Source: an uncultured bacterium
GTDB taxonomy: Bacteria > Eisenbacteria > RBG-16-71-46 > DASYSL01
Length of the DNA stretch: 47,535 nucleotides
Assembly: GCA_964386525.1 (NCBI GenBank)
Contig: CAYLSO010000258.1
Location: forward strand, 1-47,535
Reading direction: 5' to 3'
The notes below the pieces were generated by a model. That model had not been told where the DNA came from and made no database searches. It saw only the letters and a list, made by a program, of their open reading frames with translations. Of this stretch, positions 1,122 through 40,573 are shown one piece after another (within the stretch, counting starts at the first letter, position 1; each line of letters starts with the position of its first letter). The translations under genes were made by a program, and so were the position numbers.

Positions 1122-2084
1122 CTACTCCGTCACCACCGCTTTCGCCGTGACCACGGCTCCGCCCTGGATCAGCCGCACGAGGTACACCCCGGCGCGCAGC
1201 GCGCGCCCGGGCGCGAACTCCACCGAGTGGCGTCCGGCTCCCAGCGCACCCACGTCCTGACGCGCCACGCGGCGGCCGGTCACGTCCATCAGATCGAGCG
1301 TCGCCGGCCGGGCGGACGGCAGGGTGAAAGCCACCCGCACGGCGCCGCGCGACGGATTGGGCTGCACGCCCTCGAGCGTCAGCCCGAGCTTGGCAGCGGG
1401 CCCGTCCTCGACACCCACCTGGCAGTCCGTGTCGGTGGCGTCGTAGACCAGGTCCCCGTCGTTGTCCAGACCGCGGGTCGGGGCTACAAGACTCTCGGAG
1501 CCGTTCCCGTTGCAGGGGTCGGTAGGCTTGTTCGGGTGCGCCGCATCGGGGGTGAAGTAGTACAGCGGCTTCACCGTCTCCGGAGCGGTCGTGAAGTTGG
1601 CCGGGTTGGAATCCGTGTGGCAGCTCACGCACTGCGTGACGCCGGCGCGATAGTGATGCTGCCGCAGCCCGACCGCCTTGACCGCGCCACCCGCCGCCGG
1701 CTCCGCCCGCCCGTGGCAGCCGTTGCAGCTGATCGCCGCGAAGCCGGTCCCGCCGTCGGAACTGGCGAGCAGCACCGGAAAGCGCTGCGCTCCGTGGCAG
1801 ACGTTGCAGTCGCCGCCCAGCATGTCGGTGCGGTGGCCGTTGTGCAGGCTGGTGCCGCCCGCCCACGCCACGTCGTCGGAGTTCGACACGTAGCCGCTGG
1901 CCCGGAAGTCCCCGTGGCAGGCCGCGCAGTTGTCCGCCTGGTTCGTCGAGTACTGCTCGTAGGCGGCCGCCGGCGTCCAGAGGTAGCCGCCGATCGCCAC
2001 GGCGGCCAGCACGACCAGCGTGACTGCAGCCGCGGTCACGGTCAGCCCTGGGACGATTCTCTCCTTGTTGCAGATGCGCTCCAT
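1122..2084 (-). CDS. tetraheme c-type cytochrome with N-terminal signal/anchor and FlgD-Ig/T9SS-like C-terminal domain
   Basis: This is the C-terminal 320 aa of the 790-aa track ORF, starting at MERICNKERIVPGLTVTAAAVTLVVLAAVAIGG. It has four CxxCH motifs (CAACH, CNVCH, CNGCH, CVSCH) plus spare His pairs (HNGH, RQHH). A DNDGD acidic stretch follows. The terminal ~85 aa (QPNPSRGAVRVAFTLP...GVYLVRLIQ...) resemble the other C-terminal domains (CTDs) in this window. Confidence 0.85.
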   Translation of the reverse strand: MERICNKERIVPGLTVTAAAVTLVVLAAVAIGGYLWTPAAAYEQYSTNQADNCAACHGDFRASGYVSNSDDVAWAGGTSLHNGHRTDMLGGDCNVCHGAQRFPVLLASSDGGTGFAAISCNGCHGRAEPAAGGAVKAVGLRQHHYRAGVTQCVSCHTDSNPANFTTAPETVKPLYYFTPDAAHPNKPTDPCNGNGSESLVAPTRGLDNDGDLVYDATDTDCQVGVEDGPAAKLGLTLEGVQPNPSRGAVRVAFTLPSARPATLDLMDVTGRRVARQDVGALGAGRHSVEFAPGRALRAGVYLVRLIQGGAVVTAKAVVTE

Positions 2085-2317
2085 CGTCACCCTCTTCGCT
2101 GTCTGGGTTGGTCCCCGAGGGCGGCCGGCGGCCTCGACTGCCCAGCTTCCCGCCCGCATTGCCCGGGCGGCGTCACATCCCGGCTTTCGCGGTGCCCGGC
2201 CCCGTTGGGAGGGGCGCGGCCCACGAAAGACCAAGAACAGGATAAGGTCCGCAGCCGCGTCACCGCAAGGAGTGCCGGAGGGCGATCGGCACGATCCCCC
2301 CCGAGCCAGCGCCCGCG

Positions 2318-3166
2318 TCAGCTCCGCGTCCGCCGCACCCGCGGCCGCCCCGCGCCCTCGGCACTGCGCCCGCCGCTCCCGCTGCGAGCCCGCGGCCGCT
2401 GACTGACGATCCCGGTCACCACGTACGTCCCGCTGCGCTCGTCCTTGCGCAGCGTGACCACGCCGGACTCCTGCGCGTCCTCCAGCAGCTCGCTGAAGCT
2501 GCCGTAGCCCAGCGCGGCCTCGCTGAACGCGGGCCGCTTGCGCTTCATGGTGTCCTTGACCAGGGAGGCCTGGATGAGCTCGAAGTTCTCGCGCTGCAGG
2601 GCCCGCACGGTGTCGACCAGCAGGCGGAACGGCTCGTCCTTGCCGCGCGCCGGCGCGGCGTCGGTCTTGGGCGGCTCGGCGCCGCGCTCGAGGTCCTCGT
2701 AGTAGATGAACTCGTCGCAGCCGTTGGCCAAGAGCGGCAAAGTGGAGGCCTTCATGCCGAGGCCGATGACGTGCTTGCCGTTCTCCTTGAGCTTGGCCAC
2801 CAGCGGGGAGAAGTCGCTGTCGCCGGAGACGATCACGAAGGTGTCGATGTGCGCCTTGCTCCAGCTCAGGTCCATGGCGTCCACCACCAGCCGGATGTCG
2901 GCCGAGTTCTTGCCGGTGGTGGCGCGGCGCGGGATCTCGATCAGCTCGATGCCGTTCTCGTGCAGGCCCTCGGTGTGGCTGCGGAAACGGCCCCAGTCGG
3001 CGTAGGCCACCTTGGCGATGACCTTGCCCTTCTCGAGCAGCCGGTCGAGGACGCGCCGCACCTCGAAGGGAGCGCTGGCGTCGCGCAGGCCCATGGCGAT
3101 GTTCTCGAAGTCGATGAACACGGCGATCTGCAGCTGCGGGCCGGCGGTCGGGGGCGAAGCGGGCAT
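2318..3166 (-). CDS. NYN (LabA-like) domain protein with C-terminal OST-HTH/LOTUS domain
   Basis: IAVFIDFENIAMG...NSADIRLVVDAMD...IVSGDSDFSPLVAKLKENGKHVIGLG is the NYN/LabA pattern. The C-terminal part (VKDTMKRKRPAFSEAALGYGSFSELLEDAQESGVV) is OST-HTH-like. I chose ATG at 3166 because GGAGG lies 8 nt upstream; the track ORF starts at GTG 3175. Confidence 0.85.
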   Translation of the reverse strand: MPASPPTAGPQLQIAVFIDFENIAMGLRDASAPFEVRRVLDRLLEKGKVIAKVAYADWGRFRSHTEGLHENGIELIEIPRRATTGKNSADIRLVVDAMDLSWSKAHIDTFVIVSGDSDFSPLVAKLKENGKHVIGLGMKASTLPLLANGCDEFIYYEDLERGAEPPKTDAAPARGKDEPFRLLVDTVRALQRENFELIQASLVKDTMKRKRPAFSEAALGYGSFSELLEDAQESGVVTLRKDERSGTYVVTGIVSQRPRARSGSGGRSAEGAGRPRVRRTRS

Positions 3167-3369
3167 GGGGCGCACCTCCAGGAGCGGGGGGACGACGGCG
3201 ACCGGTGCATCTTAGGAGCCGCCCGGCCGCAGGTCCACCCCCACCTGCGCGTCCGCCGCCGCCCGGCCGCCCCTTGCCCCCGGTGCTAGAATGCAGCCCG
3301 GTCGCATCCCCCGCGCGCCCGCGCCGCGACGGATCCGCGGCGCCCCTCGTCCACCCACGGGAGCACGCC

Positions 3370-5262
3370 ATGAAAGCCGCCCGCCTCGCCGTCCGGTCCC
3401 TGGTCGTCTCGGCCCTGGCGCTGTCGCTCGCCGCCGGCTTCACCGCCGGCGCGGAGCGCGCCACCATCGACGACAAGTACAAGTGGAAGGTCACCGACGT
3501 CTATCCGTCCGACGAGGCCTGGCGGGCGGCCAAGGACGAACTCGCCAAGCGCATCCCCGAACTGGCCAAGTTCCAGGGCCGCCTCGGCGAATCGGCCGCC
3601 ACGCTCTACGACGCCTTCGCGGCGCGCAGCGAAGCGGACCGCCGGCTGGCGCGCCTGCAGGTCTACGCCTCGATGCGGGCCGACGAGGACACGCGCAGCC
3701 AGTCGTACATGGCCATGCAGCAGGAGATCGAGAAGCTCGGGGTGGACTACGGCGCCGCCACCGCCTACCTGCGGCCCGAGGTCCTGGCCCTGGGCCAGGA
3801 GAAGGTCAAGGCGTTCGTCGCCGCCGAAGCGCGCCTGGCGCCCTACGCCATCGTGCTCGACGAGATCGTGCGCTGGGCCCCGCACACGCTGAGCCCGGCC
3901 GAGGAGCAGATCGTCGCCAAGACCGACGACCTGGCCGGCGCCGGCGGTTCGATCCGCGGCGTCTTCAGCAACGCCGAGCTGCCCTTTCCCACGGTCACCC
4001 TCTCCACCGGCGACTCGCTGCGCCTCGACCCCGCCACCTTCGGCCGCTGCCGGGCGCTGCCCGAGCGCGAGGACCGGCTCAAGGTCTTCCGCGCCTACTT
4101 CAGCACCTACAAGCAGTACGAGGGCACATACGGCACGATGCTCAACGCGCACGTCAAGAGCCACGTATTCGAGAAGGAGGTGCGCAGGTTCGACAGCTGC
4201 CTGGCGTCGGCGCTGTTCGCCAGCAACATCCCGACCCCGGTCTACTCGCAGTTGCTGCGGGACGTGCACGCCAACCTGCCGACCCTGCACCGCTACCTCA
4301 AGCTGCGCCAGAAGATGATGGGCCTCGACGAGCTGCGCTACGAGGACCTCTACGCGCCCATCGTCAAGAAGGTGGACCTCAAGTTCACCCCCGAGGAGAC
4401 CCAGGAGCTGGTGGTGGCCGCGGTCGCGCCGCTGGGGCCGGACTACGCCGCCACGCTGCGGCGGGCGTTCGCCGAGCGTTGGATCGACTGGATGCCGTCC
4501 ACCGGCAAGCGCTCCGGGGCGTACAGCACCGGCATCTACGACGTGCACCCGTATCAGCTGCTCAACTTCACCGGCCTCTACGACGACGTCTCGACGGTGG
4601 CCCACGAGGGCGGGCACGGCATGCACTCGTACTCCTCGAGCCAGGGGCAGCCCTACCCGACCTGGCGCTATCGCACCTTCGTGGCCGAGGTGGCCTCGAC
4701 CCTCAACGAGGCGCTGCTGCAGGACTACATGCTGCAGCGGACCAAGGAACTCGACACGCGGCTGTTCCTGCTCGGCAGCCGACTCGAGGACCTGCGCCAG
4801 ACGCTCTTCCGCCAGGTGCTCTTCGCGGAGTTCGAGCTCAAAGCCCACGAGCTGGTGGAGCGCGGCGAGCCGCTCACCGGCGAGAAGCTCACGCAGCTCT
4901 ACCTGGGGCTCTTGAAGGACTACTACGGGGACGCGGCCGGGGTCTGCAAGGTGGACGACCTGTACGGCGTCGAGTGGGCGCTGGTCCCCCACTTCTACCG
5001 GGAGTTCTACGTCTACCAGTACGCCACCAGCATCGTGGCCTCCGCGTCCCTGGCCGACGGCATCCTGGCGGAGGCCAAGGCCACGAAGGGCAAGGCGCCG
5101 CGCCGCGATGCGTACCTCAAGCTGCTCGCCGCCGGCGGCTCGAAGTACCCCATCGACCTGCTCAAGGATGCGGGCGTGGACATGACCACCTCGGCCCCGT
5201 TCGCCGCCGCCATGGCCGCGATGAACCGAGTGATGGACGAGATGGAGGAGCTGCTGCGGTAG
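3370..5262 (+). CDS. pepF: oligoendopeptidase F (M3B metallopeptidase), secreted
   Basis: Contains the HEGGHGMH zinc motif (HExxH) and is M3-like along its length. The start is at MKAARLAVRSLVVSALALSLAAG (signal peptide), with GGGAG upstream. The upstream 55 codons of the track ORF are Pro/Arg-rich. Confidence 0.9.
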   Translation: MKAARLAVRSLVVSALALSLAAGFTAGAERATIDDKYKWKVTDVYPSDEAWRAAKDELAKRIPELAKFQGRLGESAATLYDAFAARSEADRRLARLQVYASMRADEDTRSQSYMAMQQEIEKLGVDYGAATAYLRPEVLALGQEKVKAFVAAEARLAPYAIVLDEIVRWAPHTLSPAEEQIVAKTDDLAGAGGSIRGVFSNAELPFPTVTLSTGDSLRLDPATFGRCRALPEREDRLKVFRAYFSTYKQYEGTYGTMLNAHVKSHVFEKEVRRFDSCLASALFASNIPTPVYSQLLRDVHANLPTLHRYLKLRQKMMGLDELRYEDLYAPIVKKVDLKFTPEETQELVVAAVAPLGPDYAATLRRAFAERWIDWMPSTGKRSGAYSTGIYDVHPYQLLNFTGLYDDVSTVAHEGGHGMHSYSSSQGQPYPTWRYRTFVAEVASTLNEALLQDYMLQRTKELDTRLFLLGSRLEDLRQTLFRQVLFAEFELKAHELVERGEPLTGEKLTQLYLGLLKDYYGDAAGVCKVDDLYGVEWALVPHFYREFYVYQYATSIVASASLADGILAEAKATKGKAPRRDAYLKLLAAGGSKYPIDLLKDAGVDMTTSAPFAAAMAAMNRVMDEMEELLR

Positions 5263-5347: not shown

Positions 5348-6064
5348 TTACCGGTGCGTCGCCTTCAGCTTGCCCCAGGTGGTGATCAAGGTCGGCACCG
5401 CGCAGTCGGCGTCGCTGCCGTCGTAGGTCGTGTCGCCGTCGTTATCGAGGCCCAGCGGCCCGGCCACCAGACTCTCCGCACCGTTCCCGTTGCAGGGATC
5501 CGTGGGCTTGTTGGGATGCGCCGCGTCCGGCGTGAAGTAGTACAGCGGCTTCACCGTCTCCGGGGCCACCGCGAAGCCCGCGGGATTCGCGTCCGAGTGG
5601 CAGTTGACGCACGCCGTCACCCCGGAGCGGTAGTGGTGCTGGCGCAGCCCGGTGCCCTTCACCGCGCCGCCGGCCGCAGGCTCGGCGCGCCCGTGGCAAC
5701 CGAGGCAGCTGATCGCCGCAAAGCCGGTCCCACCGACCGAGCTCTTCAACAGCACCGGGAAACGGGAGGCCGCGCTGTGGCAGACGTTGCAGTCACCGCT
5801 CAGCATGCTCGTCCGGTGCCCGTTGTGCAGGCTGGTGCCGCCCGTCCAGGCGACGCCGTCGGCGTTCGAGACGTAGCCGCTGGCCCGGAAGTCCCCGTGG
5901 CAGGCCGCGCAGTTGTCCGCCTGGTTCGTCGAGTACTGCTCGTAGGCTCCGGCCAGCCGGATGCTTCCCGCGGCGACGGCCAGAACGACGATCCCTGCCG
6001 CACCCAACGCCGTGGCGACCATCCCCCGCCGCGCACCGGCGGCGTGCCCGTATCGATCCCGCAT
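5348..6064 (-). CDS. tetraheme c-type cytochrome, paralog of 1122..2084, ending in a short TTWGKLKATHR tag instead of the CTD
   Basis: Has the same four CxxCH motifs (CAACH, CNVCH, CLGCH, CVNCH). Long stretches are nucleotide-identical to the first copy. The start at MRDRYGH has GGAGGA 5 nt upstream. Confidence 0.85.
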   Translation of the reverse strand: MRDRYGHAAGARRGMVATALGAAGIVVLAVAAGSIRLAGAYEQYSTNQADNCAACHGDFRASGYVSNADGVAWTGGTSLHNGHRTSMLSGDCNVCHSAASRFPVLLKSSVGGTGFAAISCLGCHGRAEPAAGGAVKGTGLRQHHYRSGVTACVNCHSDANPAGFAVAPETVKPLYYFTPDAAHPNKPTDPCNGNGAESLVAGPLGLDNDGDTTYDGSDADCAVPTLITTWGKLKATHR

Positions 6065-6585
6065 GCGAATCCTCCTGAGTGGAACGCTGAGGGAACCGGG
6101 GTTCCCTCTCCTAAGGCCGGCCTGCGCCGGCACCTCTTCCCCCGCGGCCACGCCAGGAAGTGAGATACCGGTTTACCCCCAGACAGATCCGCCGAGTTCC
6201 CTGTAAACGCTGTAAATCAATGGGTTCGGTGGATCGGCCGACGGTTGGGGCATAGCGAGAAGCGAGCCGCCGCCCGGCTGGGTCCGGTGGATTGATGTTT
6301 AGTACTGGTAATCCGTCATATGACCGCAATCACATAGACCCCGCCGAAGGCCTCCTGTGGCCCCGGCCACCCGCCCGGCGGCGCCAGCCTCCCCCCGCCC
6401 GCCCACTGCATACTGAGGCGTCGGCCGTGCACGATCCGGCCCGGCACGCCCTCCCGACCCGCCCGCTGGGAGCGCTGGGTCCAATCGCGTATGCTGCCGC
6501 GGACTTTGCCGGCGGCCGGCCACGACCCGCGACGCCGCCGGCCCGGAAGGACCCGATCGCCCACGCCCAGCCGGAGGAGCCGCTC

Positions 6586-8708: not shown

Positions 8709-10883
<2,175 letters not shown>

Positions 10884-11003: not shown

Positions 11004-12206
11004 TCAGAAGGCGAAGTCGACCCGCGCCGTGACGAAGGACTCGACGGCGTCGTCGGTGGCCGTCACGTCGGCCAGCTTCCGGTGCGAGTACTCGAGGTGC
11101 AGCGCCACGTTGTCCACCGCGTAGTACCGCCCGCCCGCCGTCCAGCGCGTGATGTCGCGGCCGTCCACGTCCGGGGCCTGGACCAGGTCGAAGCGCGCGA
11201 AGCCTACGAGATTGACGGCCGGCAGCACGCTCAGCTCGGCGAAGCCGCCGGAATAGGTGACGGCATCCACGGCGCCCCACAGGTTCTGGTCGTCGCGCGA
11301 CCACAGGTACTGGAGCGCCAGGTTAACGTGGGCGGCGTTGAGGCTGGCGTCCACCCCGGCACGGTAGAACGGCTCCAGCGAGGTCGGACCCCCGAGCTCA
11401 TCGGCCGGACGCGCCCGGCCGAGGTAGCCCACCAGGCCGAGGCGCTGGCCGGCCGTCTGCCCCTCGCCCGGCCCCACCACGTACGCGGCACGGGCGTAGA
11501 CGTCGGAGGGCGTGTCGTACGGGCGGTTGGTCTCCGACCCGGTGACCACGCCGGCCGCATACTGGAAGCGGTTGCGCCCGTAGCCGGCCGCCTCGACTCC
11601 GCTGCGCGTCTCGGAGAGCAGCGGACCGGCCGGGAACGAGTAGTCGTAGACCTCGTACGGGGCCACGCCCAGCTGGCGCTTGACGCTGAACGGCACGAAG
11701 GCGGGCTCGAAGCGTCCGGCGCGCAGGTTCAGCCACGAGCCGGCCAGACCGCTGAACACCACGCTGGCCATCTCCAGCGCCCCGTCCTGCGGCGCCACCC
11801 CGCGCGCTTCGCCGATCTGCGGCAGGTAGACCATGAAGTAGCCGATCTTGGGGCCCAGCATCCCGGCCGAGAGCAGGTCGAGGCCGTTGAGCCGGAAGTC
11901 GCTCTCGCAGCCGCCGCCGGCGGCGTCGTTGCGGTCGGCCCCCGTGTAGCCGACGCTGGTCCTGAGGGCCACCGGCGCGGGCGATTGCAGCACCGTCTTC
12001 TCCTCGCTCTCGCGGCCCGGCAACCGGTAGCCGTTCATCCGGTAGCGGGCGCCGAAATCGTTGAGCCGGGGCATGTTCGAGTGGCACATGGTGCACTGGA
12101 AGCCGTACTTGCGGGCGAAGACGGGGACGGCCGCGGCGCGGCCCGGCCACGCGGCCGCGAGGATCCCGGCCAGCGCCAGAAGCGTCCAGAGGCTACGGGC
12201 TCTCAT
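11004..12206 (-). CDS. monoheme cytochrome c fused to an outer-membrane beta-barrel (Cyc2/Cyt572-like architecture)
   Basis: The signal peptide MRARSLWTLLALAGILAAAWPGRAAA is followed by VPVFARKYGFQCTMCHSNMPRLNDFG, which holds a single CxxCH. About 350 aa of Gly/aromatic-rich alternating segments follow, ending in VDFAF (an aromatic OMP-type C-terminus). The ATG overlaps the upstream stop (ATGA at 12203-12206) and a GGGAGG RBS is present. Confidence 0.6.
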   Translation of the reverse strand: MRARSLWTLLALAGILAAAWPGRAAAVPVFARKYGFQCTMCHSNMPRLNDFGARYRMNGYRLPGRESEEKTVLQSPAPVALRTSVGYTGADRNDAAGGGCESDFRLNGLDLLSAGMLGPKIGYFMVYLPQIGEARGVAPQDGALEMASVVFSGLAGSWLNLRAGRFEPAFVPFSVKRQLGVAPYEVYDYSFPAGPLLSETRSGVEAAGYGRNRFQYAAGVVTGSETNRPYDTPSDVYARAAYVVGPGEGQTAGQRLGLVGYLGRARPADELGGPTSLEPFYRAGVDASLNAAHVNLALQYLWSRDDQNLWGAVDAVTYSGGFAELSVLPAVNLVGFARFDLVQAPDVDGRDITRWTAGGRYYAVDNVALHLEYSHRKLADVTATDDAVESFVTARVDFAF

Positions 12207-13252
12207 CGCAGGCCTCCCTTCGCGTCGGCTTGCGGATCCGGCCCCTCCGGGAACTTCGGCACCTCCACCTTGGGCACCGGGCCGGTGAGCGCATCGAGGA
12301 ACGCGACCAGGTCGGCTTTCTCCCGCCGCGTCAGCGCCAGCGGCAGCACCAGCCGGTCGAGCCGCGGGTTCGGCACGCCGCCCCGGTCGTAGACGTCGAT
12401 GACGTCCATCAGGGTCTTCGCGGAGCCGTCGTGCAGGTAGGGCGGGGTCTGCGCCACGTTGCGCAGGCCCGGCGTCTTGAAGCGGCCCTGGTCGGCCGGG
12501 TCCTTGGTGTGGTCGTAGCGGCCGAGATCGGGCTTCTCCTTGTCCATCCCCACGCCGAGGTTGCGGAAGGACTGGTCGGAGAAGGCCGGGCCGCTGTGGC
12601 ATGGGGTGCAGTGGCCCTTGCCGTTGAACACGCGCAGGCCGCGCTCCGCCGCCGGACTCATGGCGCCGCGCTCCCCCATCAGGTAGCGGTCGTACGGCGA
12701 CGGCCCCGAGACGATCGTGCGCTCGAAGGCGGCGATGGCCTTGGCGATGCCGTCGGTGTTGGCGTCCGTGCCGAAGACCTGCTGGAACTGTTCGCGGTAG
12801 CCGGGGATGGCGTTGAGCTTGTTCACCACGTTCTCGTGGGTCTCGCCCATCTCGATGGGATTGTGGATCGGCCCCAGGGCCTGCCCCTCGAGCGAGGCCT
12901 CGCGGCCGTCCCAGAACTGGAAGCGCATGTAGGCGGAGTTGATGATGGTCCCCGAGTTGCGCCCGCCGACCTGCCCCTTGATGCCGGTGTCGATCGGGTG
13001 GGGGTTGGCCCATCCGGTGCGCGGGTCGTGGCAGGTGGCGCAGCTGATCGTGTTGTCCGCCGACAGCCGGGTATCGAAGTAGAGCTGCGCCCCGAGGCGG
13101 ACCTTGGCGTCGGTCTGCGGGTTGTCGGCGGGGACGGGCACGGGCGGGAGCGGCCCGTTCTCCAGGAACTGTCCTGCGGCCCAGACGGTCGGCTGGCCCA
13201 GCCACCAGCACAGGCCGAGCGCCGCCAGGGCTGCCAGTGCGATCCTCATCAT
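12203..13252 (-). CDS. di-heme cytochrome c peroxidase (CcpA/MauG family), periplasmic
   Basis: Signal peptide plus two heme motifs (CATCH and CTPCH). FWDGREASLEGQALGP and PPYLHDGS are typical of bacterial CCPs. An AAGGAGG RBS lies upstream. Confidence 0.9.
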   Translation of the reverse strand: MMRIALAALAALGLCWWLGQPTVWAAGQFLENGPLPPVPVPADNPQTDAKVRLGAQLYFDTRLSADNTISCATCHDPRTGWANPHPIDTGIKGQVGGRNSGTIINSAYMRFQFWDGREASLEGQALGPIHNPIEMGETHENVVNKLNAIPGYREQFQQVFGTDANTDGIAKAIAAFERTIVSGPSPYDRYLMGERGAMSPAAERGLRVFNGKGHCTPCHSGPAFSDQSFRNLGVGMDKEKPDLGRYDHTKDPADQGRFKTPGLRNVAQTPPYLHDGSAKTLMDVIDVYDRGGVPNPRLDRLVLPLALTRREKADLVAFLDALTGPVPKVEVPKFPEGPDPQADAKGGLR

Positions 13253-13543: not shown

Positions 13544-13732
13544 AGATTGTGGCTGACGTGTGGCCCTGGACGGTGTCGTGAAGATGCCGCCGCCGGGCGC
13601 GCAGCGTCGCCGGTTTCCAAGGGGACTCGGCCTTCTGTCATGTCACCAACGGTCTGATCACCGCCCGGTCCCGCTGCCCCCGCCCGGACACGGAACCCGT
13701 CCGGAGCCTTGGCTCAAACAAAGGAGTCTGCC

Positions 13733-14041
13733 ATGAAGAGGACCACGAAGAGGCGCGTCAAGCGCGTGGTGCGTAAAGTGAAGCGCGCCAAGAAGGTAGC
13801 TCGCAAGAAGGCCGTCAAGCGCGTCATCCGCAAGCGCGCGGTCAAGAAGGCCGTCCGCCGTCGCGTCGCCAAGAAGGCCGTCCGCCGCCGCGTCGTCAAG
13901 AAGGCGCTCGTCAAGCGCGCCATCAAGAAGGCGCTCGTCAAGCGCGCCATCAAGAAGGCCGTGGTGAAGAAGGCCATCCGCCGCGGGGCGAAGCCGCCGG
14001 CTTGGCCGCCGATGCTCGGTGGTCCGGAGGGCGGGATCTAG
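13733..14041 (+). CDS. histone H1-like / Lys-Arg-Ala-Val repeat DNA-binding protein
   Basis: MKRTTKRRVKRVVRKVKRAKKVARKKAVKRVIRKRAVKKAVRRRVAKKAVRRRVVKKALVKRAIKKALVKRAIKKAVVKKAI... AAGGAG lies 7 nt upstream of ATG 13733 and an intrinsic terminator lies just downstream. Confidence 0.8.
   Translation: MKRTTKRRVKRVVRKVKRAKKVARKKAVKRVIRKRAVKKAVRRRVAKKAVRRRVVKKALVKRAIKKALVKRAIKKAVVKKAIRRGAKPPAWPPMLGGPEGGI
13898..13951 (+). repeat. exact 27-nt tandem duplication inside the histone-like gene
   Basis: AAGAAGGCGCTCGTCAAGCGCGCCATC occurs twice back to back (13898-13924 and 13925-13951), encoding KKALVKRAI x2. A degenerate 24-nt pair (KKAVRRRV) precedes it. Confidence 0.95.
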
Positions 14042-33973: not shown

Positions 33974-34110
33974 CGCACAGGGGCGCGGCGCCTGAGGACC
34001 TCCTCCCTCGGCGCGCGCCCCGACTCTTTGCGGCGACCTTGCCGGCGGCCCCGCGCCGGCGGGGCACCGCGCCTTGCCCCCGAGACCCTTCCGCCGCTAG
34101 GCTCCGCCCC

Positions 34111-36882
34111 GTGAACCCATCGACCTCTCCGCTTACCAATCCCTACGAGCCGGCCGGCGATTTCGCGGCCGAAGCCGCCGCCCTCGACGCCGGGCGCCTC
34201 GAGGAACTCGACGCCTGGGCCGCCGGCATGGCCCGCCATCCGCAGGGCGGCGAGTGGCACAAGCGCGGCGAGCGGCGGCTGGCCGAAAACCAGGCCGGAG
34301 CGCAGGCCCAGTACGCGCACGCCGCGCTGCTGGAGGCGCAGGGCGAGCGGGCCGAGGCGGCGCGGCTCCTGGTGGGCTTGTGCGAGCGCCTGGCGCAGGC
34401 CGCGGCCTGGCCGGCGGTCGCACTCGTGGCCCGCCGCGCCCTGCGTGCCGAGGCCGGGCCGCCCGCGGCCCGCTGGCTGGTGCACGCCGCCGACGAGACC
34501 GGCGGCGAGGACGAGCGCTTCGAGGCGCTGATCGAGGCCCACGAGGCCGCCCCCGGAGAGGCCCGTCTGGCGTGGCGCCTCTCCCGCCAGTACGAGGCGC
34601 GTGGCGAGCGCGAGAGCGCTCTCGACGCCACCGGCCGCGCCCTCGACGCGCTCGCCCGCCGGCACGACGCCGAGGGCATGGAGGAAGCCCTTCTCAGCCT
34701 GCTCGACGAGAGCGATCCCGCCTACCTGCGGTTGGCGCTGCCGCCGCTGCCGCTGTTCGCCAAGGGCGGCGAGGCGGAGCGCGTGGCGGGCTTCCTCGAG
34801 CTCTCCTGGCCGGCCCTGCGCGCCGCGGGACTGGCGGGCGCGACCTGGCAGACGCTGCGCGCCATGCTGCTCGACCTGGCCGAGCCGGGCGGCCTCGTGG
34901 CGCTGGTGCCCGAGGTGGTCGAGGCCGCCCTGCCCCAGGGAGCCGCCGCTCGCGCCCTGCTCGAGGACGCCGGCTACGGCGCCGATCCCGCGGCATCGTG
35001 GCTGCCGCTCTTCGAGCGCCTGCTGCCGTTCGTGCCGGGTGCCTACGCGGAGCACGGCTCGTGGGGCGTCGGCCGCGTCTCGAGCTTGACGCGCGAGGAG
35101 GTCTGGATCGATTTCCCCGGCCGCCCCGGCCACCGCATGACCCTGCGCGGTGCGCACCAGGCACTCGTCCCGCTCGACCCCGAGGACCTCGCGGTGCTCG
35201 CCGCGTGGCAGGCCGACCGGCTGGCGGAGCTGCGCGCCGCCGACCCCGTGGACCTGATCGTGCGAGCCCTGCGGCGGCTGGGCGGCGACGCCGCCGGCGC
35301 CGATCTCAAGAAGTTGCTCGTGCGCTACGCCGTACCGGAGACGGAGTGGACCGCCTTCTGGAACGCCGCCCGTTCCCGCCTCCCCGCCGACCCGCGGGTC
35401 GACGGCAGCGCGGCTTATCGCGGCCGCTACCGGCTCATCGCGGCAGGGCCGGGAGCGCCCGCCGGCGCCATCGAGCCGGCAGTGCCGCTGCCCCGCTTCG
35501 ACCGCGGCGCCGACGCGCGCCAGGTGCTGACCACGCTGCGCCGGTTCCTCGCGCAGCATCCGGACGAGGCGGTGCGGCTGGCGCAGGAGCGCGGCTCCGT
35601 GCTGCGCGCCTGGCGCGACGACCCGGCGCTGGCATGGCGCGAGCGCGTCGGGGCCCTGCTCGTGCTCGCCATCGTCGCCGACGCGGAATCGGCGGCCGCC
35701 GCGCCCGCCGTGCTGGCGCGCGCCCTGGCCGACGGCTTCGATCCGCGCGAGCTGCCTTCGGGGCCGGAGCAGCGGCAGACCATCGAGTGGGGCCTGGCCT
35801 CGGCCGAGTGGGAGGCCGCGGTGCGCTCCGGCATCGCCGCGCGCTTCACCGACGTCAAGGATCTCGCCTTCGAGAGCCTCCTGGCGCGCCTGGGCGAGGG
35901 CGCCGGCGGGTTCCTCACCACCCTGGCCCGTCGCGCCGTGGAGTGGCCCGACGCCGCGCTGGCCGTCCTCGAGCGCGCGTACGGCGTCCGCGCCCCGGCG
36001 CGGGGCGCCGGCGCGGGCCCCGGCGGCTTCCCGGCCCTGGATCCGTGGGAGTCGGCGTGCGGCCTCGCGGAGCTGCTCGAGAGCGGGCCCGGGCCACAGC
36101 GCGTGAAAGCCGGGCTGCCCCTGCTCGCCACCGACGGGCCGCTGGCGCTCGCCGCCGCCGCGGCCGTCCCCGGCGCCGAGACGCGGGCCCGCATCGAGCG
36201 GCTGCTGCTCGGCTGGCGCGGCAGCGACCGCTCGCTGCTCCCCTTCCTCGAATGGGCGGAGACCGCCGGACTGGCCGACTTCGCGGCCCGAGTGCGGGAG
36301 AAGCGCCACATGGCCGCCCGCGCCATCACCGCCAACAGCGGCAAGGTGGAAGCGCACGAGCTGCCCCGTATCTTCCTGACGCGGGCGACGCTGCTACGCC
36401 TGCGGCGCGAGGCCAAGGGCCTCGACCAGGCGCTGCGCGGCGAGATCCCGGTCGCCATCCAGAAGGCACGCGAGCTGGGAGACCTGCGCGAAAACGCCGA
36501 GTACGAATCGGCGAAGCTCAAGCAGCGGCAGACGCAGGCGCGGCTCGCCCAGCTCGGGGCCAGGCTCGCCAACGTCTCGGTCATCGACGATCTCGACCGC
36601 CCGCCCGGCGTCGCCGGCCTCGGCACCGAGGTCGAGCTCGAACTGCCGGACGGCGGCTCGCGGCGCCTCTGGATCCTGGGCGAGGGCGACGACCGGCTCG
36701 GCCCCGAGGTGGTCTCCTACCTCGCCCCGCTCGGCCGCGCGCTGCTCGGCAAGCGCCCCGGCGACGCGGTGGAGCTGCCCGGCGACGGCGCGGCGCACTC
36801 GGCCGTCGTGCGCGCCGTGCGGCCGCGCTTGCCCGAGCCCGGCGATCCGGCGGCGGGCAGCGCCGCGCCGACCGCGGCGTGA
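34111..36882 (+). CDS. large GreA/GreB-family protein (~920 aa) with long N-terminal extension
   Basis: The last ~160 aa are GreA-like: LTRATLLRLRREAKGLDQALRGEIPVAIQKARELGDLRENAEYESAKLKQRQ..., followed by an FKBP-like C-domain (VSYLAPLGRALLGKRPGDAVELP). The N-terminal ~750 aa are helical-repeat-like, with a CarD/TRCF-RID-like stretch (HGSWGVGRVSSLTREEVWIDFPG). The start is uncertain: GTG 34111 or TTG 34039. Confidence 0.7.
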   Translation: MNPSTSPLTNPYEPAGDFAAEAAALDAGRLEELDAWAAGMARHPQGGEWHKRGERRLAENQAGAQAQYAHAALLEAQGERAEAARLLVGLCERLAQAAAWPAVALVARRALRAEAGPPAARWLVHAADETGGEDERFEALIEAHEAAPGEARLAWRLSRQYEARGERESALDATGRALDALARRHDAEGMEEALLSLLDESDPAYLRLALPPLPLFAKGGEAERVAGFLELSWPALRAAGLAGATWQTLRAMLLDLAEPGGLVALVPEVVEAALPQGAAARALLEDAGYGADPAASWLPLFERLLPFVPGAYAEHGSWGVGRVSSLTREEVWIDFPGRPGHRMTLRGAHQALVPLDPEDLAVLAAWQADRLAELRAADPVDLIVRALRRLGGDAAGADLKKLLVRYAVPETEWTAFWNAARSRLPADPRVDGSAAYRGRYRLIAAGPGAPAGAIEPAVPLPRFDRGADARQVLTTLRRFLAQHPDEAVRLAQERGSVLRAWRDDPALAWRERVGALLVLAIVADAESAAAAPAVLARALADGFDPRELPSGPEQRQTIEWGLASAEWEAAVRSGIAARFTDVKDLAFESLLARLGEGAGGFLTTLARRAVEWPDAALAVLERAYGVRAPARGAGAGPGGFPALDPWESACGLAELLESGPGPQRVKAGLPLLATDGPLALAAAAAVPGAETRARIERLLLGWRGSDRSLLPFLEWAETAGLADFAARVREKRHMAARAITANSGKVEAHELPRIFLTRATLLRLRREAKGLDQALRGEIPVAIQKARELGDLRENAEYESAKLKQRQTQARLAQLGARLANVSVIDDLDRPPGVAGLGTEVELELPDGGSRRLWILGEGDDRLGPEVVSYLAPLGRALLGKRPGDAVELPGDGAAHSAVVRAVRPRLPEPGDPAAGSAAPTAA

Positions 36883-36929
36883 CCGCCGCCGGCTGGCCGC
36901 CCCCGCCGGCCGATGCTAAGGTGACCGGC

Positions 36930-37907
36930 ATGATCCTGGCCGGAGACGTCGGCGCGACCAAGACCAACCTGGCGCTCTTCGAGGCGCGCGGGGAGACGCT
37001 CGTCGAGCGGCGCGCGCAGCGGCTGGAGAGCCGCCGCTACCCCGACCTGCCGAGCCTGGTGCGCGACTTCCTCGGCCCCCATCCCGAACCGGTCGAGCGC
37101 GCCGGCTTCGGCGTCGCCGGCCCGGTGGTGGACGGGCTCTGCTCGGCCACCAACCTGTCGTGGACGGTGGACGCGCGCGACCTGGCGGAGCTCCTGCCGG
37201 GCAGCGCCGTCGTCCTGGTCAACGACCTCGTGGCCACCGCCGCCGGCGTGCTCGACCTCGCCCCCGCCCAGCTCGCGCAGCTGCTGCCGGGAAGGCCGCG
37301 CAACGGCGGCACGCGGGCCGTCATCGCCCCGGGCACCGGCCTCGGCGAGTCCATCCTGTTCTGGGACCGCGGCGCCTACCACGCCGTCCCCACCGAGGCC
37401 GGGCACGCCGATTTCGCGCCCCGCGGCGAGGAGGAGATCGCGCTTCTGCGCTACCTGCTCGAGCGCGGCCCGCGCGTCACCTGCGAGCACGTCGTCGCCG
37501 GGCCGGGCCTGGCGCGCATCCACGAATTCCTGCGCGACACCGGGCGCGCCGCGGAGCCGCCGTGGCTGGCGCAGGAACTGGCCGCCGCCGCGGACCGCAA
37601 CGCCGCCATCAGCCGTGTGGCCCGCGACGGCCGCGCCGCGATCTGCGCGCGCGCCCTCGAGCTGTGGCTCGGCGCCCTCGGCGCCGAGGCCGGCAACCTC
37701 GCCCTGCGCGCGGTGGCTGCGGGGGGGATCTACGTGGCCGGCGGCATCGCGAGCCCGCTCCTCGAGGCGCTGCGCGGCGCGGCGTTCCGCGAGGCCTTCC
37801 TCGCCAAGGAGCCGCTGCGCGCCTTCCTCGAAACCGTGCCCGTGCGGGTCGTGCTCGAGGAGAGGGCGGCGCTCTTCGGCGCCGCGCGGCTGGCGGCCCG
37901 GGCCTAG
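36930..37907 (+). CDS. glk: glucokinase
   Basis: MILAGDVGATKTNLALFE...VLVNDLVATAAG...APGTGLGES...EAGHADFAP is the Glk family pattern. It is read from the frame of the long track ORF 34254..37907. Confidence 0.85.
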   Translation: MILAGDVGATKTNLALFEARGETLVERRAQRLESRRYPDLPSLVRDFLGPHPEPVERAGFGVAGPVVDGLCSATNLSWTVDARDLAELLPGSAVVLVNDLVATAAGVLDLAPAQLAQLLPGRPRNGGTRAVIAPGTGLGESILFWDRGAYHAVPTEAGHADFAPRGEEEIALLRYLLERGPRVTCEHVVAGPGLARIHEFLRDTGRAAEPPWLAQELAAAADRNAAISRVARDGRAAICARALELWLGALGAEAGNLALRAVAAGGIYVAGGIASPLLEALRGAAFREAFLAKEPLRAFLETVPVRVVLEERAALFGAARLAARA

Positions 37908-37940
37908 CGGCCACCCGGGGCACCCCCGGCCGGCCGGCGG

Positions 37941-38720
37941 CTAGCGCTTCTCGAGCGCCGGGCCCAGCCGCGAGGCGGCGGCCCGGTCCAGTACCCAGTG
38001 CACGCGGGCGCCGGGCGGGCGGACGCCGCGCGCCGGCAGGCGCTCGAGCGGCTCGTCGCCCTCGAGCACCCGCTGCACGACCTCGGCCTTGTCCGCACCC
38101 GTGACGTAGAAGAGCACCACGCGGGCCGCGTTGAGCACCGGCAGGGTCAGCGTCAGGCGCCGTTCGAGCGGCGGCGGGCCCGGGGCGGCCACCACCCAGC
38201 GCGACGGCTCGGCCAGCACGGGGCTGCCGGGGAAGAGCGAAGCCACGTGGCCGTCGGGGCCGAGCCCGAGGTGGATGACGTCGAAGCGGGGCACCCCGCC
38301 GCGCGCGAAGCCGGCGAGGCAGCGTCCGTAGCGCGCCGCCTCCGCCTCGAGGTCGGCCGCGTCGCCGCGCAGGCGGTGCACCTGAGTGAGGGTGAGCGGG
38401 ACGCGGTCGAGGATGGTCTCGCGCACCAGCCGGTAGTTGCTCTCCTCCGACGACGCGGGCACGGCGCGCTCGTCCGCCCAGAACACGTGCAGCGATTTCC
38501 AGCCCGCCCACCGCGCGAAGCCCGAGCCGCCCAGCCGTTCGAAGAACTGGCGCGGGGTCTTGCCGCCCGACAGCGCCACGCTGGCGCGGCCGCGCACCCA
38601 GGCGGCCGATTCCACCTCGCGACGAAAGATGTCGCTGGCGTCGTAGGAGGCCGTCCCCGCGTCGGCGTGCACGCGGATGTGCACCTCGGGACCGGCCGCG
38701 TGCACGGGAGATCCGTTCAC
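37941..38720 (-). CDS. pgl: 6-phosphogluconolactonase
   Basis: VALSGGKTPRQFFERL...VFWADERAVP...FDVIHLGLGPDGHVASLFPGSP is the Pgl/DevB pattern. The GTG start overlaps the pgi stop (GTGA at 38717-38720). The upstream part of the 421-aa track ORF is shadow sequence. Confidence 0.8.
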   Translation of the reverse strand: MNGSPVHAAGPEVHIRVHADAGTASYDASDIFRREVESAAWVRGRASVALSGGKTPRQFFERLGGSGFARWAGWKSLHVFWADERAVPASSEESNYRLVRETILDRVPLTLTQVHRLRGDAADLEAEAARYGRCLAGFARGGVPRFDVIHLGLGPDGHVASLFPGSPVLAEPSRWVVAAPGPPPLERRLTLTLPVLNAARVVLFYVTGADKAEVVQRVLEGDEPLERLPARGVRPPGARVHWVLDRAAASRLGPALEKR

Positions 38721-40447
38721 GGCGCGCCGCGGATCGCCGTCAGGCGCTCGAGCCACTCCTCGACGGCTCCCAGATCCCCGTCCACCGTCAACTGCAGGCG
38801 CAAGACCGGCAAGTTGCGCCCGGCCAGCGACCGCGCGTCGCCGAGCGCCTGGGCGCGGATCAACTGCTCGAAGCCGAAGCCGCCGCCGGGCACCGGCAGC
38901 TCGGCGGGCGTGTCGGCCGTGATCTGCAGGAAGGCGCCGGTGGGCGGGCCACCCTTGTGCAGCTGCCCGGTCGAGTGCAGGTAGCGCGGTCCGAAGCCGA
39001 GGGTGACCGCCAGCCGCTGGCGGTCGCGCAGCCGGGCGCGGATGTGCTCGAGGCGCGCCTCGGTGCGCTCGTCGAGCGGCAGGTAGGCTTGCACCGCGAG
39101 GTAGTGGCCCGCCGGGATCGCGTCGAGCCACTGCCGCAGCAGGCCGATGAGTTCCTCCTCGCCGCCGGCGCCGCCGGGTCGCGGCGGCAGGCCGGGCGGC
39201 CCGCACAGCCGCACGCCGCGCGCCTGGGCGCAGGGGGTCTCGCGCTCCGAGCGGTCGGTGGCCTGGTAGGCGGCCAGCACGCGGCCCGTGTTCTCCTTGC
39301 TCTCGCCCACGTTGGGCTCGTCGAAGGCGTTGACGCCGAGGTCCACGGCCGCCACCGCGGTGGCGAACTCCCAGCGGAAGAACTCGGCGCCGAGATCGTA
39401 GGCGTCGTCGAGGGCGATGCGGATCACCGGGTGCCCCGCCGCCTCGAGGCGCCGCAGCCGCTCACCGTCGGGGCCGCGCGCGCCGTGCATGCCGAGGTGA
39501 ACGAAGAGGCGGTCCTGGCCGTAGACGTCGGGCCCCCCCAGCGGCTCTCCCGCCACCGGCACGAGGCCCTTGCCCTCCTTGCCGAGGCTCTCCGCCAACA
39601 GCTGCTCGGCCCACAGCCCGAAGCTCGCCAGCGGCGGGTCAACCACGAAGGTGACCTTGTCGCGCCCGGCCCGCGCCAGCTCGGCCAGCGCCGCGCCGAG
39701 GACCAGGCCGGGGTTCTCCTCGCCCCGCGCGCGGCACGACTCGCGCATGCGTCCGGCGCGGCCGATCAGCTTGCCGAGATCCACGCCGAGGAGCGCGGCA
39801 GGCAGCAGGCCGAAGGGCGTAAGCGCCGAGTAGCGCCCGCCTACGTCCGGGGGCCCGGAGAAGACGTGGCGCCAGCCGCGCTCGCGCGCCTCGCGGTCGA
39901 GCGGGGTGCCCGGGTCCGTGACGGCCACGAACGCCGGCCCCGCCCCCGCCGGGCGCGCCGCCTCGCAGACCTCCCAGAAGTAGCGGAGCAGGGAGACCGT
40001 CTCGATGGTCGTGCCCGACTTGGTGGAGACGACGAAGAGCGTGCGCGGCAGCGGTGCGGCGCGCTGCGCCGCCAGCACGGTGACCGGATCGGTCGAGTCG
40101 AGGACGGTGAGCGACGGGGAGCCGTTGGCCGGCGGGAAGGTGCGCCGCAGCACCTCGGGGCAAAGGCTCGAGCCGCCCATGCCGAGCAGCATCACGTGGA
40201 CGAAACCGTCGGCGCGGACGCGGGCGGCGAACGTCTCGAACTCGGCCCGCGACGGCTCGGCTGCCAGCGGCGCGTCGAGCCAGCCCAGCCGGTTGGCGAC
40301 CGCGCGCGCCGCTTCCGGGGTGGTCGCCCACAGGCTGGTGTCGCGGCTCCAGGTCTGCTCCACGACGCGGGCGCGGACGAGGTCGGCCAGGCGGGCGCGA
40401 ACCCTGTCCGCGTGGACGCCGAGCGAAAGCACGGTCGGACCGCTCAT
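38717..40447 (-). CDS. pgi: glucose-6-phosphate isomerase (SIS-domain PGI)
   Basis: LLGMGGSSLCPEV...FVVSTKSGTTIETVS...GGRYSALTPFGL is present, with a GGAGGAGGG RBS. Confidence 0.85.
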   Translation of the reverse strand: MSGPTVLSLGVHADRVRARLADLVRARVVEQTWSRDTSLWATTPEAARAVANRLGWLDAPLAAEPSRAEFETFAARVRADGFVHVMLLGMGGSSLCPEVLRRTFPPANGSPSLTVLDSTDPVTVLAAQRAAPLPRTLFVVSTKSGTTIETVSLLRYFWEVCEAARPAGAGPAFVAVTDPGTPLDREARERGWRHVFSGPPDVGGRYSALTPFGLLPAALLGVDLGKLIGRAGRMRESCRARGEENPGLVLGAALAELARAGRDKVTFVVDPPLASFGLWAEQLLAESLGKEGKGLVPVAGEPLGGPDVYGQDRLFVHLGMHGARGPDGERLRRLEAAGHPVIRIALDDAYDLGAEFFRWEFATAVAAVDLGVNAFDEPNVGESKENTGRVLAAYQATDRSERETPCAQARGVRLCGPPGLPPRPGGAGGEEELIGLLRQWLDAIPAGHYLAVQAYLPLDERTEARLEHIRARLRDRQRLAVTLGFGPRYLHSTGQLHKGGPPTGAFLQITADTPAELPVPGGGFGFEQLIRAQALGDARSLAGRNLPVLRLQLTVDGDLGAVEEWLERLTAIRGAP

Positions 40448-40573
40448 GAGCCCTCCTCCGGACGGCGCTGCCCGCCCCAGGCTGTGTCTGCGGATTCGAT
40501 CCGGCGCGGGGGCCGGCGCCCAGGCATTATGGCACCGCCGTGCCCCCAGGGCGAGCGGCGGCTGACGCGGCGC

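Follow-up and report, generated by a model that had tools for sequence, protein, structure and literature searches.

An overlapping gene pair for a di-heme CCP_MauG-family enzyme and a Cyc2-type heme-porin in an uncultured Eisenbacteria bacterium

Positions 1 to 47,535 of contig CAYLSO010000258.1 (assembly GCA_964386525.1; positions in nucleotides, nt) of an uncultured Eisenbacteria bacterium are called the window here. This stretch carries on its minus strand a pair of overlapping genes. The first gene (13252..12203) encodes a 349-residue di-heme protein of the CCP_MauG family, and the second (12206..11004) encodes a 400-residue porin of the Cyc2 type with a single N-terminal heme site. The pair recurs in the same order and orientation in all 78 genome loci in which it could be evaluated, and the pairing is therefore not due to chance. 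It is best explained as a redox cassette that is complete in itself and reaches from the outer membrane into the periplasm. Both component families are known, and their obligatory combination is the new element. No description of a heme-porin paired with a di-heme peroxidase was found in the full-text literature on Cyc2 or on the di-heme superfamily, a body of text outside which most subscription-journal papers fall; the pairing had also seemed undescribed to an earlier interpretation made from the letters of the window (the sequence-only reading). The features of the pair, from upstream to downstream, are as follows.

12203..13252, minus strand: di-heme CCP_MauG-family enzyme, 349 residues with a signal peptide, upstream gene of the pair (Pfam PF03150, E = 7.7e-59)
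13028..13042, minus strand: first heme motif, CATCH, residues 71–75, site of the peroxidatic heme (motif and invariant pocket)
12596..12610, minus strand: second heme motif, CTPCH, residues 215–219, site of the electron-transfer heme (motif)
12389..12391, minus strand: Tyr288 in VIDVYDRGG, predicted axial ligand of the six-coordinate, Tyr-His heme (alignment)
12213..12218, minus strand: GGGAGG, Shine-Dalgarno-like, within the 3' end of the di-heme gene, 6 nt ahead of the heme-porin ATG
12203..12206, minus strand: ATGA stop/start overlap of both genes (read from the sequence)
11004..12206, minus strand: Cyc2-type monoheme cytochrome-porin, 400 residues plus stop codon (signature motifs, predicted fold and family profile)
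12129..12206, minus strand: signal peptide, residues 1–26 (MRARSLWTLLALAGILAAAWPGRAAA), with predicted cleavage after AAA, ahead of V (charged N-region and hydrophobic core, sequence features only)
12063..12131, minus strand: cytochrome signature A-V-P-V-F-A-R-K-Y-G-F-Q-C-T-M-C-H-S-N-M-P-R-L, residues 26–48 (AXPXFAR[Q/K][T/Y], CXXCH and PXL)
11007..11972, minus strand: predicted 16-strand beta-barrel, residues 79–400, ending in Phe (AlphaFold2 model, Foldseek and Pfam)
11607..11708, minus strand: long L3-like loop between strands 5 and 6, residues 167–200 (FEPAFVPFSVKRQLGVAPYEVYDY), free of strands in the model and the best-conserved part of the barrel

The ATG of the heme-porin gene (12206–12204) overlaps the TGA of the di-heme gene (12205–12203) by 4 nt. 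The sequence-only reading had pointed to this ATGA and had suggested looking for the same synteny in relatives. A scan of one genome per GTDB species seeded with the porin gave 326 relatives, the best 80 loci of which were kept and inspected; two of them begin at a contig edge, and in each of the remaining 78 a di-heme homologue (48–82% identity) lies immediately upstream of the porin gene on the same strand. The 80 loci are spread over the Eisenbacteria (the closest), Elusimicrobia, Armatimonadota, Acidobacteriota, Myxococcota, Ignavibacteriota, Bacteroidota, Zixibacteria, Krumholzibacteria, Planctomycetota and Pseudomonadota, and they include a Geoanaerobacter metagenome-assembled genome (MAG). 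With start codons in the other loci picked by a simple rule, 25 of 76 loci have the same ATGA overlap (–4 nt), and most of the others are spaced by 2–27 nt. Clustering of the open reading frames (ORFs) of the 80 loci yielded no further conserved neighbour, and the other clusters found in more than 12 loci are overlapping or antisense ORFs of the two genes. The neighbourhoods of the cassette are thus otherwise unrelated.

A reciprocal metagenome scan seeded with the di-heme protein gave 80 loci, 18 of which are paired, 7 have no room downstream and 55 are unpaired. Among relatives with at least about 66% identity the porin always follows where the contig has room, and the first unpaired locus (L095, 65% identity) carries His at position 288. 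No shared neighbour was found among the unpaired di-heme loci. Many of these metagenome loci (L095–L167) represent a very abundant CCP_MauG clade, 47–60% identical and mostly with Tyr at that position, which has neither a heme-porin nor a common neighbour. Natural fusions of the porin and the di-heme protein were absent among the best 120 and 150 matches listed, the longest of which has 546 residues.

The heme-porin begins with MRARSLWTLLALAGILAAAWPGRAAA and continues, past the predicted cleavage site, with VPVFARKYGFQCTMCHSNMPRLNDFG; the remainder is rich in Gly and Tyr and closes with VDFAF. Translation thus returned what the sequence-only reading had described, namely a 400-residue ORF with a signal peptide, exactly one CxxCH and a terminal VDFAF. 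The CxxCH is CTMCH (residues 38–42), and a single such motif is kept in all 75 aligned homologues. In a 24-member alignment the mature N-terminus lies directly ahead of the conserved motif in every homologue, and the N-terminal block A-x-P-V-F-A-R-K-Y-G-x-x-C-T-x-C-H-S-x-x-P-R-L-N-D is invariant, as are many barrel positions. Residues P28, F30, A31, R32, K33, Y34, C38, C41, H42 and L48 are at least 97% conserved among the 75 homologues, and so are E167, S174, R177 and Y187 in the long loop. By analogy with general porin architecture, this loop probably acts as the constriction loop.

The AlphaFold2 model of the heme-porin has a mean predicted local distance difference test score (pLDDT) of 76.7 and a predicted template modelling (TM) score of 0.76. 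From residue 79 to residue 399 the model forms 16 strands if the split elements 154–157 and 160–166 are counted as one strand. In a Foldseek search the model matched Omp32 (2fgq, 7.9e-13), OprP (2o4v, 3.4e-12, TM score of 0.61) and OprO (4rjw, 1.1e-10), and the outer-membrane barrel that the sequence-only reading had recognised in the Gly- and Tyr-rich segments is therefore predicted to be a 16-strand porin barrel similar to OprP and Omp32. Pfam Porin_O_P matched residues 338–400 marginally (E = 1.6e-4, 21.5 bits against a cut-off of 20.9), and NCBIfam gave no match for the heme-porin.

The Cyc2 family has been defined by AXPXFAR[Q/K][T/Y] ahead of CXXCH, a motif called unique to Cyc2, together with PXL four residues past CXXCH, a length of at least 365 residues and a 16-strand OprO/OprP-like porin (Keffer et al. 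2021, PMC8406198). The heme-porin carries AVPVFARKY at residues 26–34 and H42-S-N-M-P46-R-L48 at the position of PXL, and its 400 residues and predicted OprO/OprP-like barrel agree with the length and fold of the family. Of 76 related loci, 74 have PxFARKY, one of them in the form PxFARQY. A search of a large protein collection gave 394 relatives of the heme-porin; the best 120 of these are 52–87% identical, nearly all of them are 395–430 residues long, and all lack an assigned name. When 1.84 billion representatives were searched with the family profile, 3706 relatives passed E <= 1e-3, and 118 of these reached E <= 1e-30. Look-ups of cluster members gave ‘hypothetical protein’ only. Plasmids in PLSDB contain only weak Cyc2-like matches from Ralstonia, which have no di-heme neighbour; alignment of the family profile with the Ralstonia megaplasmid protein (NPLFARQTGLECASCHTIYPELTPFG...) by hhalign gave a probability of 97.1% and an E value of 5.9e-11 over 244 columns.

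The gene context of seven more distant profile matches was looked up (length and E value in brackets).

P0246 (491 residues, 9e-30): followed by a c4-type di-heme cytochrome, a CarboxypepD_reg protein, COX2 and COX1
P0151 (421 residues, 9e-51): between a cupredoxin and a c4 cytochrome
P0158 (391 residues, 1.6e-45): after COX2, COX1 and SCO1, before a c4 cytochrome
P0147, P0154 and P0244 (467–546 residues): no adjoining di-heme peroxidase gene
P0138 (389 residues, 7e-84): no di-heme neighbour; two tandem cyc2-like genes

P0246, P0151 and P0158 lie in contexts arranged like the rus operon of Acidithiobacillus (cyc2-cyc1-cox), and therefore the window protein is placed in the Cyc2 superfamily, where it belongs to a separate, compact clade. 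The Cyc2/Cyt572-like identity proposed by the sequence-only reading is thus supported both by the signature and by profile homology to genes in cyc2-c4-cox operons. Similarity to Cyc2-type proteins, a predicted barrel fold and a conserved pairing, the three points on which that reading had staked itself, were all found. The same three contexts imply that the gene beside cyc2 normally encodes a periplasmic electron acceptor. In other words, the neighbour of a Cyc2-type gene usually specifies the acceptor of the porin heme, and in the paired clade this slot is filled by the di-heme enzyme. In a neighbour-joining tree the 75 paired sequences form one clade with P0138 as its sister, with a bootstrap of only 43/100, so that the monophyly of the paired clade is weakly supported.

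Cyc2-like genes in other settings were also encountered. Those of L082/L083, L169 and L170 share operons with genes for c4 cytochromes, a cupredoxin, SCO1 and subunits of an aa3-type oxidase. These operons resemble complete modules for aerobic iron oxidation in bacteria other than the classical iron oxidisers, and a member of the same 90%-identity cluster as the L082/L083 gene carries the label Candidatus Acidoferrales (Acidobacteriota). L168 contains tandem Cyc2-like paralogues (1107–2276 and 2399–2947) after a STAS/HATPase anti-sigma-type gene, and there is no cytochrome partner within this 2.9-kb contig.

Compared to the known Cyc2 and Cyt572 proteins (Cyc2 of Acidithiobacillus ferrooxidans, Cyc2PV-1 of Mariprofundus and Cyt572 of Leptospirillum), the heme-porin has the same signal peptide, single N-terminal CXXCH and both motifs, a similar length of about 400 residues and, by prediction, the same 16-strand OprO/OprP-like barrel. 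It differs in several respects. The paired clade is compact (400 residues), while the unpaired relatives examined range from 389 to 546 residues. Its barrel is highly conserved across phyla, whereas the porin part is poorly conserved in the Cyc2 family in general (Keffer et al., PMC8406198). Its hosts are not known iron oxidisers, and the CCP_MauG di-heme gene always precedes the porin gene, instead of a Cyc1-type cytochrome gene following it. Lastly, the second of the two residues between the cysteines of the heme motif, Met40 (12087–12089, minus strand), is specific to the clade: it is Met in 73 of the 75 paired homologues and Ala, Leu, Gly or Ser in unpaired Cyc2 relatives. Met40 could matter for the interaction with the di-heme enzyme or for modification by it.

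The di-heme enzyme retains a complete heme pocket for the reaction with peroxide. Trp114, located between the hemes, Gln124 and Glu134 are invariant in 75 of 75 partner sequences, so the peroxide-reacting site is intact. In sequence matches to the Protein Data Bank, the full-length protein is closest to Shewanella CcpA (3o5c, 3.8e-61), followed by Geobacter MacA (4aal) and the Nitrosomonas enzyme (1iqc); MbnH (6e1c, 6e-45), MauG (about 1e-29) and BthA (2.5e-12) match more weakly. BthA was accordingly rejected as the closest relative, also because it pairs with a phosphatase. The C-terminal third, on the other hand, is most similar to MbnH (6e1c, E = 2.4e-17), and its VIDVYDRGG aligns with VIDIYSEGG of MbnH. 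An ungapped alignment of KDPADQGRFKTPGLRNVAQTPPYLHDGSAKTLMDVIDVYD with residues 256–295 of MauG sets Tyr288 on MauG Tyr294 (AILFYN), a site that is occupied by the Met ligand in bacterial cytochrome c peroxidases (bCCPs; NTM in Shewanella CcpA). Tyr288 is invariant in 74 of 74 genome-derived partners and in all 18 paired metagenome loci. The distal His of bCCPs (GHxW) is absent, as the site reads GIKGQ; among 75 partners, 73 have Ile or Val here and one has His. Scores for the NCBIfam models of MauG (TIGR03791, 227 bits against a cut-off of 443.85) and MbnH (TIGR04039, 241 bits against 362.85) fall below threshold.

Judged by these alignments, the electron-transfer heme is predicted to have Tyr-His ligation as in MauG, MbnH and BthA, and the partner of the porin is not a canonical CcpA; its chemistry could be similar to that of MauG or BthA. 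The CcpA/MauG-family peroxidase of the sequence-only reading thus holds as an assignment to the CCP_MauG di-heme family, but not as a canonical CcpA, given the Tyr in place of the Met ligand and the missing distal His. The bis-Fe(IV) state of MauG and BthA has its basis in Tyr-His ligation (Rizzolo et al. 2019, PMC6405878). Although BthA is such a di-heme enzyme and forms this state, it turns over H2O2 if an electron donor is supplied (PMC6405878). An interpretation of the Tyr as an adaptation to the porin was rejected, since 43 unpaired relatives share it; other unpaired relatives carry Leu, Met, Phe, His or Lys at this position. Paired and unpaired Tyr-type enzymes do differ at other positions, among them N210, G213, H214 and S225, around the second heme motif, and these residues may mark a specialised site of electron entry.

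The pair could function as follows. Reaction of the di-ferric enzyme with H2O2 would bring it to a high-valent state, which would be compound I or the bis-Fe(IV) form known from MauG and BthA. This state would be discharged by two one-electron transfers from the porin heme, which would in turn be re-reduced through the pore by a reductant, most likely dissolved Fe(II). The net reaction at the cell boundary, 2 Fe(II) + H2O2 + 2 H+ -> 2 Fe(III) + 2 H2O, would remove both Fenton reagents and so pre-empt Fenton chemistry, and it would conserve no energy. A monoheme donor that is supplied only intermittently would be well served by a Tyr-His enzyme, which presumably requires no prior reductive activation and is able to store oxidising equivalents until electrons reach it one by one. 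Both proteins are strongly conserved, and their genes keep one order with almost no space between them; these features favour a stoichiometric complex. The sequences show the anatomy of the two proteins, the families to which they belong, the tight synteny across phyla and the replacement by Tyr; that the proteins bind each other, that electrons flow in this direction, that Fe(II) is the donor and that H2O2 is the acceptor are inferred.

The biochemically characterised members of the Cyc2 family all oxidise Fe(II) (PMC8406198, PMC7029218), and Cyc2 of strain PV-1 has a potential of 208 mV (PMC8406198), which would be suitable for reducing a high-valent Tyr-His di-heme state. A flow of electrons from extracellular Fe(II) to the porin heme, then to the di-heme enzyme and on to H2O2 has, in our estimate, about an even chance of being correct; the analogy with the sister clades lends this proposed Fe(II)-to-peroxide route better support. 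We suggest, more tentatively, that the pair may be a trans-outer-membrane peroxidase, in which the Tyr-His enzyme would store the oxidising equivalents of H2O2 and discharge them via the porin heme onto external Fe(II), possibly also onto Mn(II) or humic substances.

Several points weigh against the route from Fe(II) to peroxide. The heme segment of the porin model (residues 19–64) has a pLDDT below 50, which makes its placement relative to the barrel and the partner unreliable, and the 75-homologue alignment contains no conserved Met or His outside CxxCH that could serve as a distal heme ligand. Fe(II) as the donor is assumed only by analogy with characterised Cyc2 proteins. A search upstream of the pair gave no Fur-, PerR- or OxyR-like signal; Fur-box-like matches (8 of 69 loci against 13 of 345 shuffles) are too weak to use, and no conserved upstream block is common to the Eisenbacteria loci. 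Unpaired Tyr-type relatives of the di-heme enzyme (47–60% identity) outnumber the paired ones by 43 to 18. Finally, Tyr-His ligation is a hallmark of MauG, its Tyr is also found in MbnH by alignment, and both of these enzymes oxidise a protein encoded by a neighbouring gene and are not peroxide scavengers.

The last point leads to an explanation in which the di-heme enzyme is a maturation factor. Like MauG and MbnH, it would use H2O2 or O2 to modify the heme-porin at a conserved Tyr, at Met or in the heme environment, and the mature porin would have unlinked partners. The invariant Tyr288 in the place of MauG Tyr294 and within the MbnH motif, the proximity of the C-terminal part to MbnH 6e1c, the loss of the bCCP distal His and the established activity of MauG and MbnH on neighbour-encoded proteins all agree with such a role, and Met40 provides one unexplained candidate target, because unpaired relatives have CS[AL]CH, CTACH or CNGCH instead of CTMCH. 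However, the invariant aromatic residues Y34 and Y60 of the cytochrome domain and Y187 are common to unpaired Cyc2 relatives, leaving no obvious clade-specific target among them, and the 75 homologues have no invariant Trp, the residue on which both MauG and MbnH act. Translational coupling points to synthesis in equal amounts, a pattern seen more often in a complex than between a catalyst and its substrate. The enzyme as a whole is nearer to bCCPs (1e-61) than to MauG (1e-29), and BthA demonstrates that Tyr-His enzymes can be true peroxidases. Maturation is on balance rather unlikely.

Two other explanations keep the enzyme as a peroxidase. In one of them, periplasmic H2O2 would act through the porin heme to oxidise an extracellular substrate, namely Mn(II), sulfide, mineral-bound Fe(II), or a humic or phenolic compound. 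The anatomy is the same as for Fe(II); the barrel and its L3-like loop are unusually conserved for Cyc2 (35–87% identity across phyla), which suggests a specific substrate path; the barrel holds many invariant Arg, Glu and Asp residues; and the host phyla are not known for iron oxidation. The sequence holds no pointer to another substrate, though, and the characterised family members point to Fe(II), so that we consider this unlikely. In the other, the two proteins would be co-expressed and act independently, with the di-heme enzyme scavenging peroxide with ordinary periplasmic donors and the porin serving for the entry of solutes or peroxide or for iron sensing. Such independence would fit the finding that most Tyr-type di-heme relatives have no heme-porin neighbour and that some related Cyc2-like genes stand alone or in tandem with a paralogue, but it is hard to reconcile with a synteny that is unbroken, in fixed order and with near-zero spacing across at least a dozen phyla and otherwise unrelated neighbourhoods, or with the porin following all of the closest di-heme relatives where the contig has room. 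We regard it as very unlikely.

The proposed trans-outer-membrane peroxidase has partial counterparts among known systems. As in the cyc2-cyc1-cox/rus operons, a Cyc2-type gene adjoins the gene of its presumed periplasmic redox partner. Here, however, the partner is a peroxide-reacting di-heme enzyme encoded upstream, there are no linked oxidase genes and no encoded route to the inner membrane, and the implied terminal acceptor is H2O2, not O2. Canonical bCCPs (Shewanella CcpA, Geobacter MacA and the Nitrosomonas enzyme) have the highest overall similarity to the di-heme partner (about 1e-61) and share its two CXXCH motifs and the Gln/Glu/Trp set, but they differ by the Met ligand of the electron-transfer heme, where Tyr is found here, and by the distal His, replaced here by Ile or Val. 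They also use a soluble cytochrome or cupredoxin as the donor, whereas the presumed donor here is a porin-fused heme.

MauG, MbnH and BthA have in common with the di-heme partner the Tyr at the MauG Tyr294 site, the retained inter-heme Trp and the lack of a bCCP-type distal His. The strict linkage of a di-heme gene to a specific partner gene is likewise known for MauG with preMADH and MbnH with MbnP. Unlike these, the window enzyme scores below the NCBIfam cut-offs and has neither mau genes nor mbnP among the conserved neighbours of the 80 loci; BthA, whose partner is a phosphatase, is distant; and only here is the partner itself an outer-membrane heme protein. EfeUOB with its DyP peroxidase EfeB is a functional analogue in that it carries out peroxide-dependent Fe(II) oxidation in the cell envelope, but it consists of unrelated protein families, serves iron uptake via the EfeU permease and has no outer-membrane component. 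In MtrCAB, PioAB and MtoAB, too, electrons cross the outer membrane through a beta-barrel; those 26-strand barrels sheath separate decaheme proteins, whereas the barrel of the window protein is predicted to have 16 strands and shares its polypeptide with a single heme site.

Cyc2 is the main marker by which microbial iron oxidation is inferred from genomes and metagenomes, for example via FeGenie. FeGenie-based studies have read Cyc2 matches in Krumholzibacteria, Aminicenantes, Zixibacteria and the DeMMO communities as iron-oxidation potential, and one of the paired loci (L078) belongs to a DeMMO Zixibacteria MAG. A large and conserved clade of Cyc2 is thus tied to a peroxide-reacting di-heme enzyme and not to a c4 cytochrome and an oxidase, and part of the inferred iron-oxidation potential may represent defence against peroxide and Fenton chemistry at oxic-anoxic interfaces rather than energy metabolism. 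If the pair is indeed a trans-outer-membrane peroxidase, many non-lithotrophic phyla would take up extracellular electrons with H2O2 as a terminal acceptor, and a sizeable share of the ‘Cyc2 iron-oxidase’ matches in metagenomes would mark peroxide defence. The pair would also give MauG-like Tyr-His enzymes a new kind of partner, an outer-membrane heme protein, and would provide a two-gene system suited to testing how electrons are handed over from a monoheme porin to a periplasmic acceptor.

In the window, the pair is flanked on one side by the gene of a Ser/Thr kinase with TPR repeats and by fabI, and on the other by a histone-like ORF, a FlgD_ig-domain protein, a cold-shock gene and genes of a 2-oxoacid:ferredoxin oxidoreductase. 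A GC-rich hairpin after the porin gene is not more stable than shuffled sequence (z = –0.61) and was rejected as a terminator; a promoter or terminator consensus was not found either. Further features with a bearing on redox function or on the surroundings of the pair are listed below.

1122–2201, minus strand: tetraheme c3/c7-like cytochrome with four CxxCH and a Por_Secre_tail, C-terminal part of ORF 1122–3494
5348–6151, minus strand: tetraheme c3/c7-like cytochrome with four CxxCH
8709–10883, minus strand: Ser/Thr kinase with a central TolB_N-like segment and many C-terminal TPR repeats (Pfam)

The kinase gene starts with the ATG at 10883, on the same strand and 120 nt downstream of the heme-porin gene, as the sequence-only reading had stated, and the two exported tetraheme cytochromes that it had reported correspond to the two ORFs with four CxxCH each. 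Its idea that all three share the physiology of the pair is unsupported: a kinase homologue is found inside 5 of the 80 loci and never directly downstream of the pair, neither tetraheme cytochrome is syntenic with the pair in the other genomes, and ORF clustering, which keeps only the two genes, led us to reject the kinase and the cytochromes as parts of the module. The Por_Secre_tail, a type IX secretion sorting domain, on the product of 1122–3494 suggests that this cytochrome may be surface-exposed.

Divergent from the di-heme gene lies a plus-strand ORF of 110 residues (13709–14041), made up nearly throughout of K/R/A/V repeats (KKAVRRRVAKKAV...) and similar in character to a histone H1-like or nucleoid protein, for which Pfam gave no match. 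The GC content of the window is about 69–78%; it rises to 0.76–0.78 at positions 34001–42000, compared to 0.69–0.74 in most of the window, and the AT skew is strongly positive at 40–44 kb.

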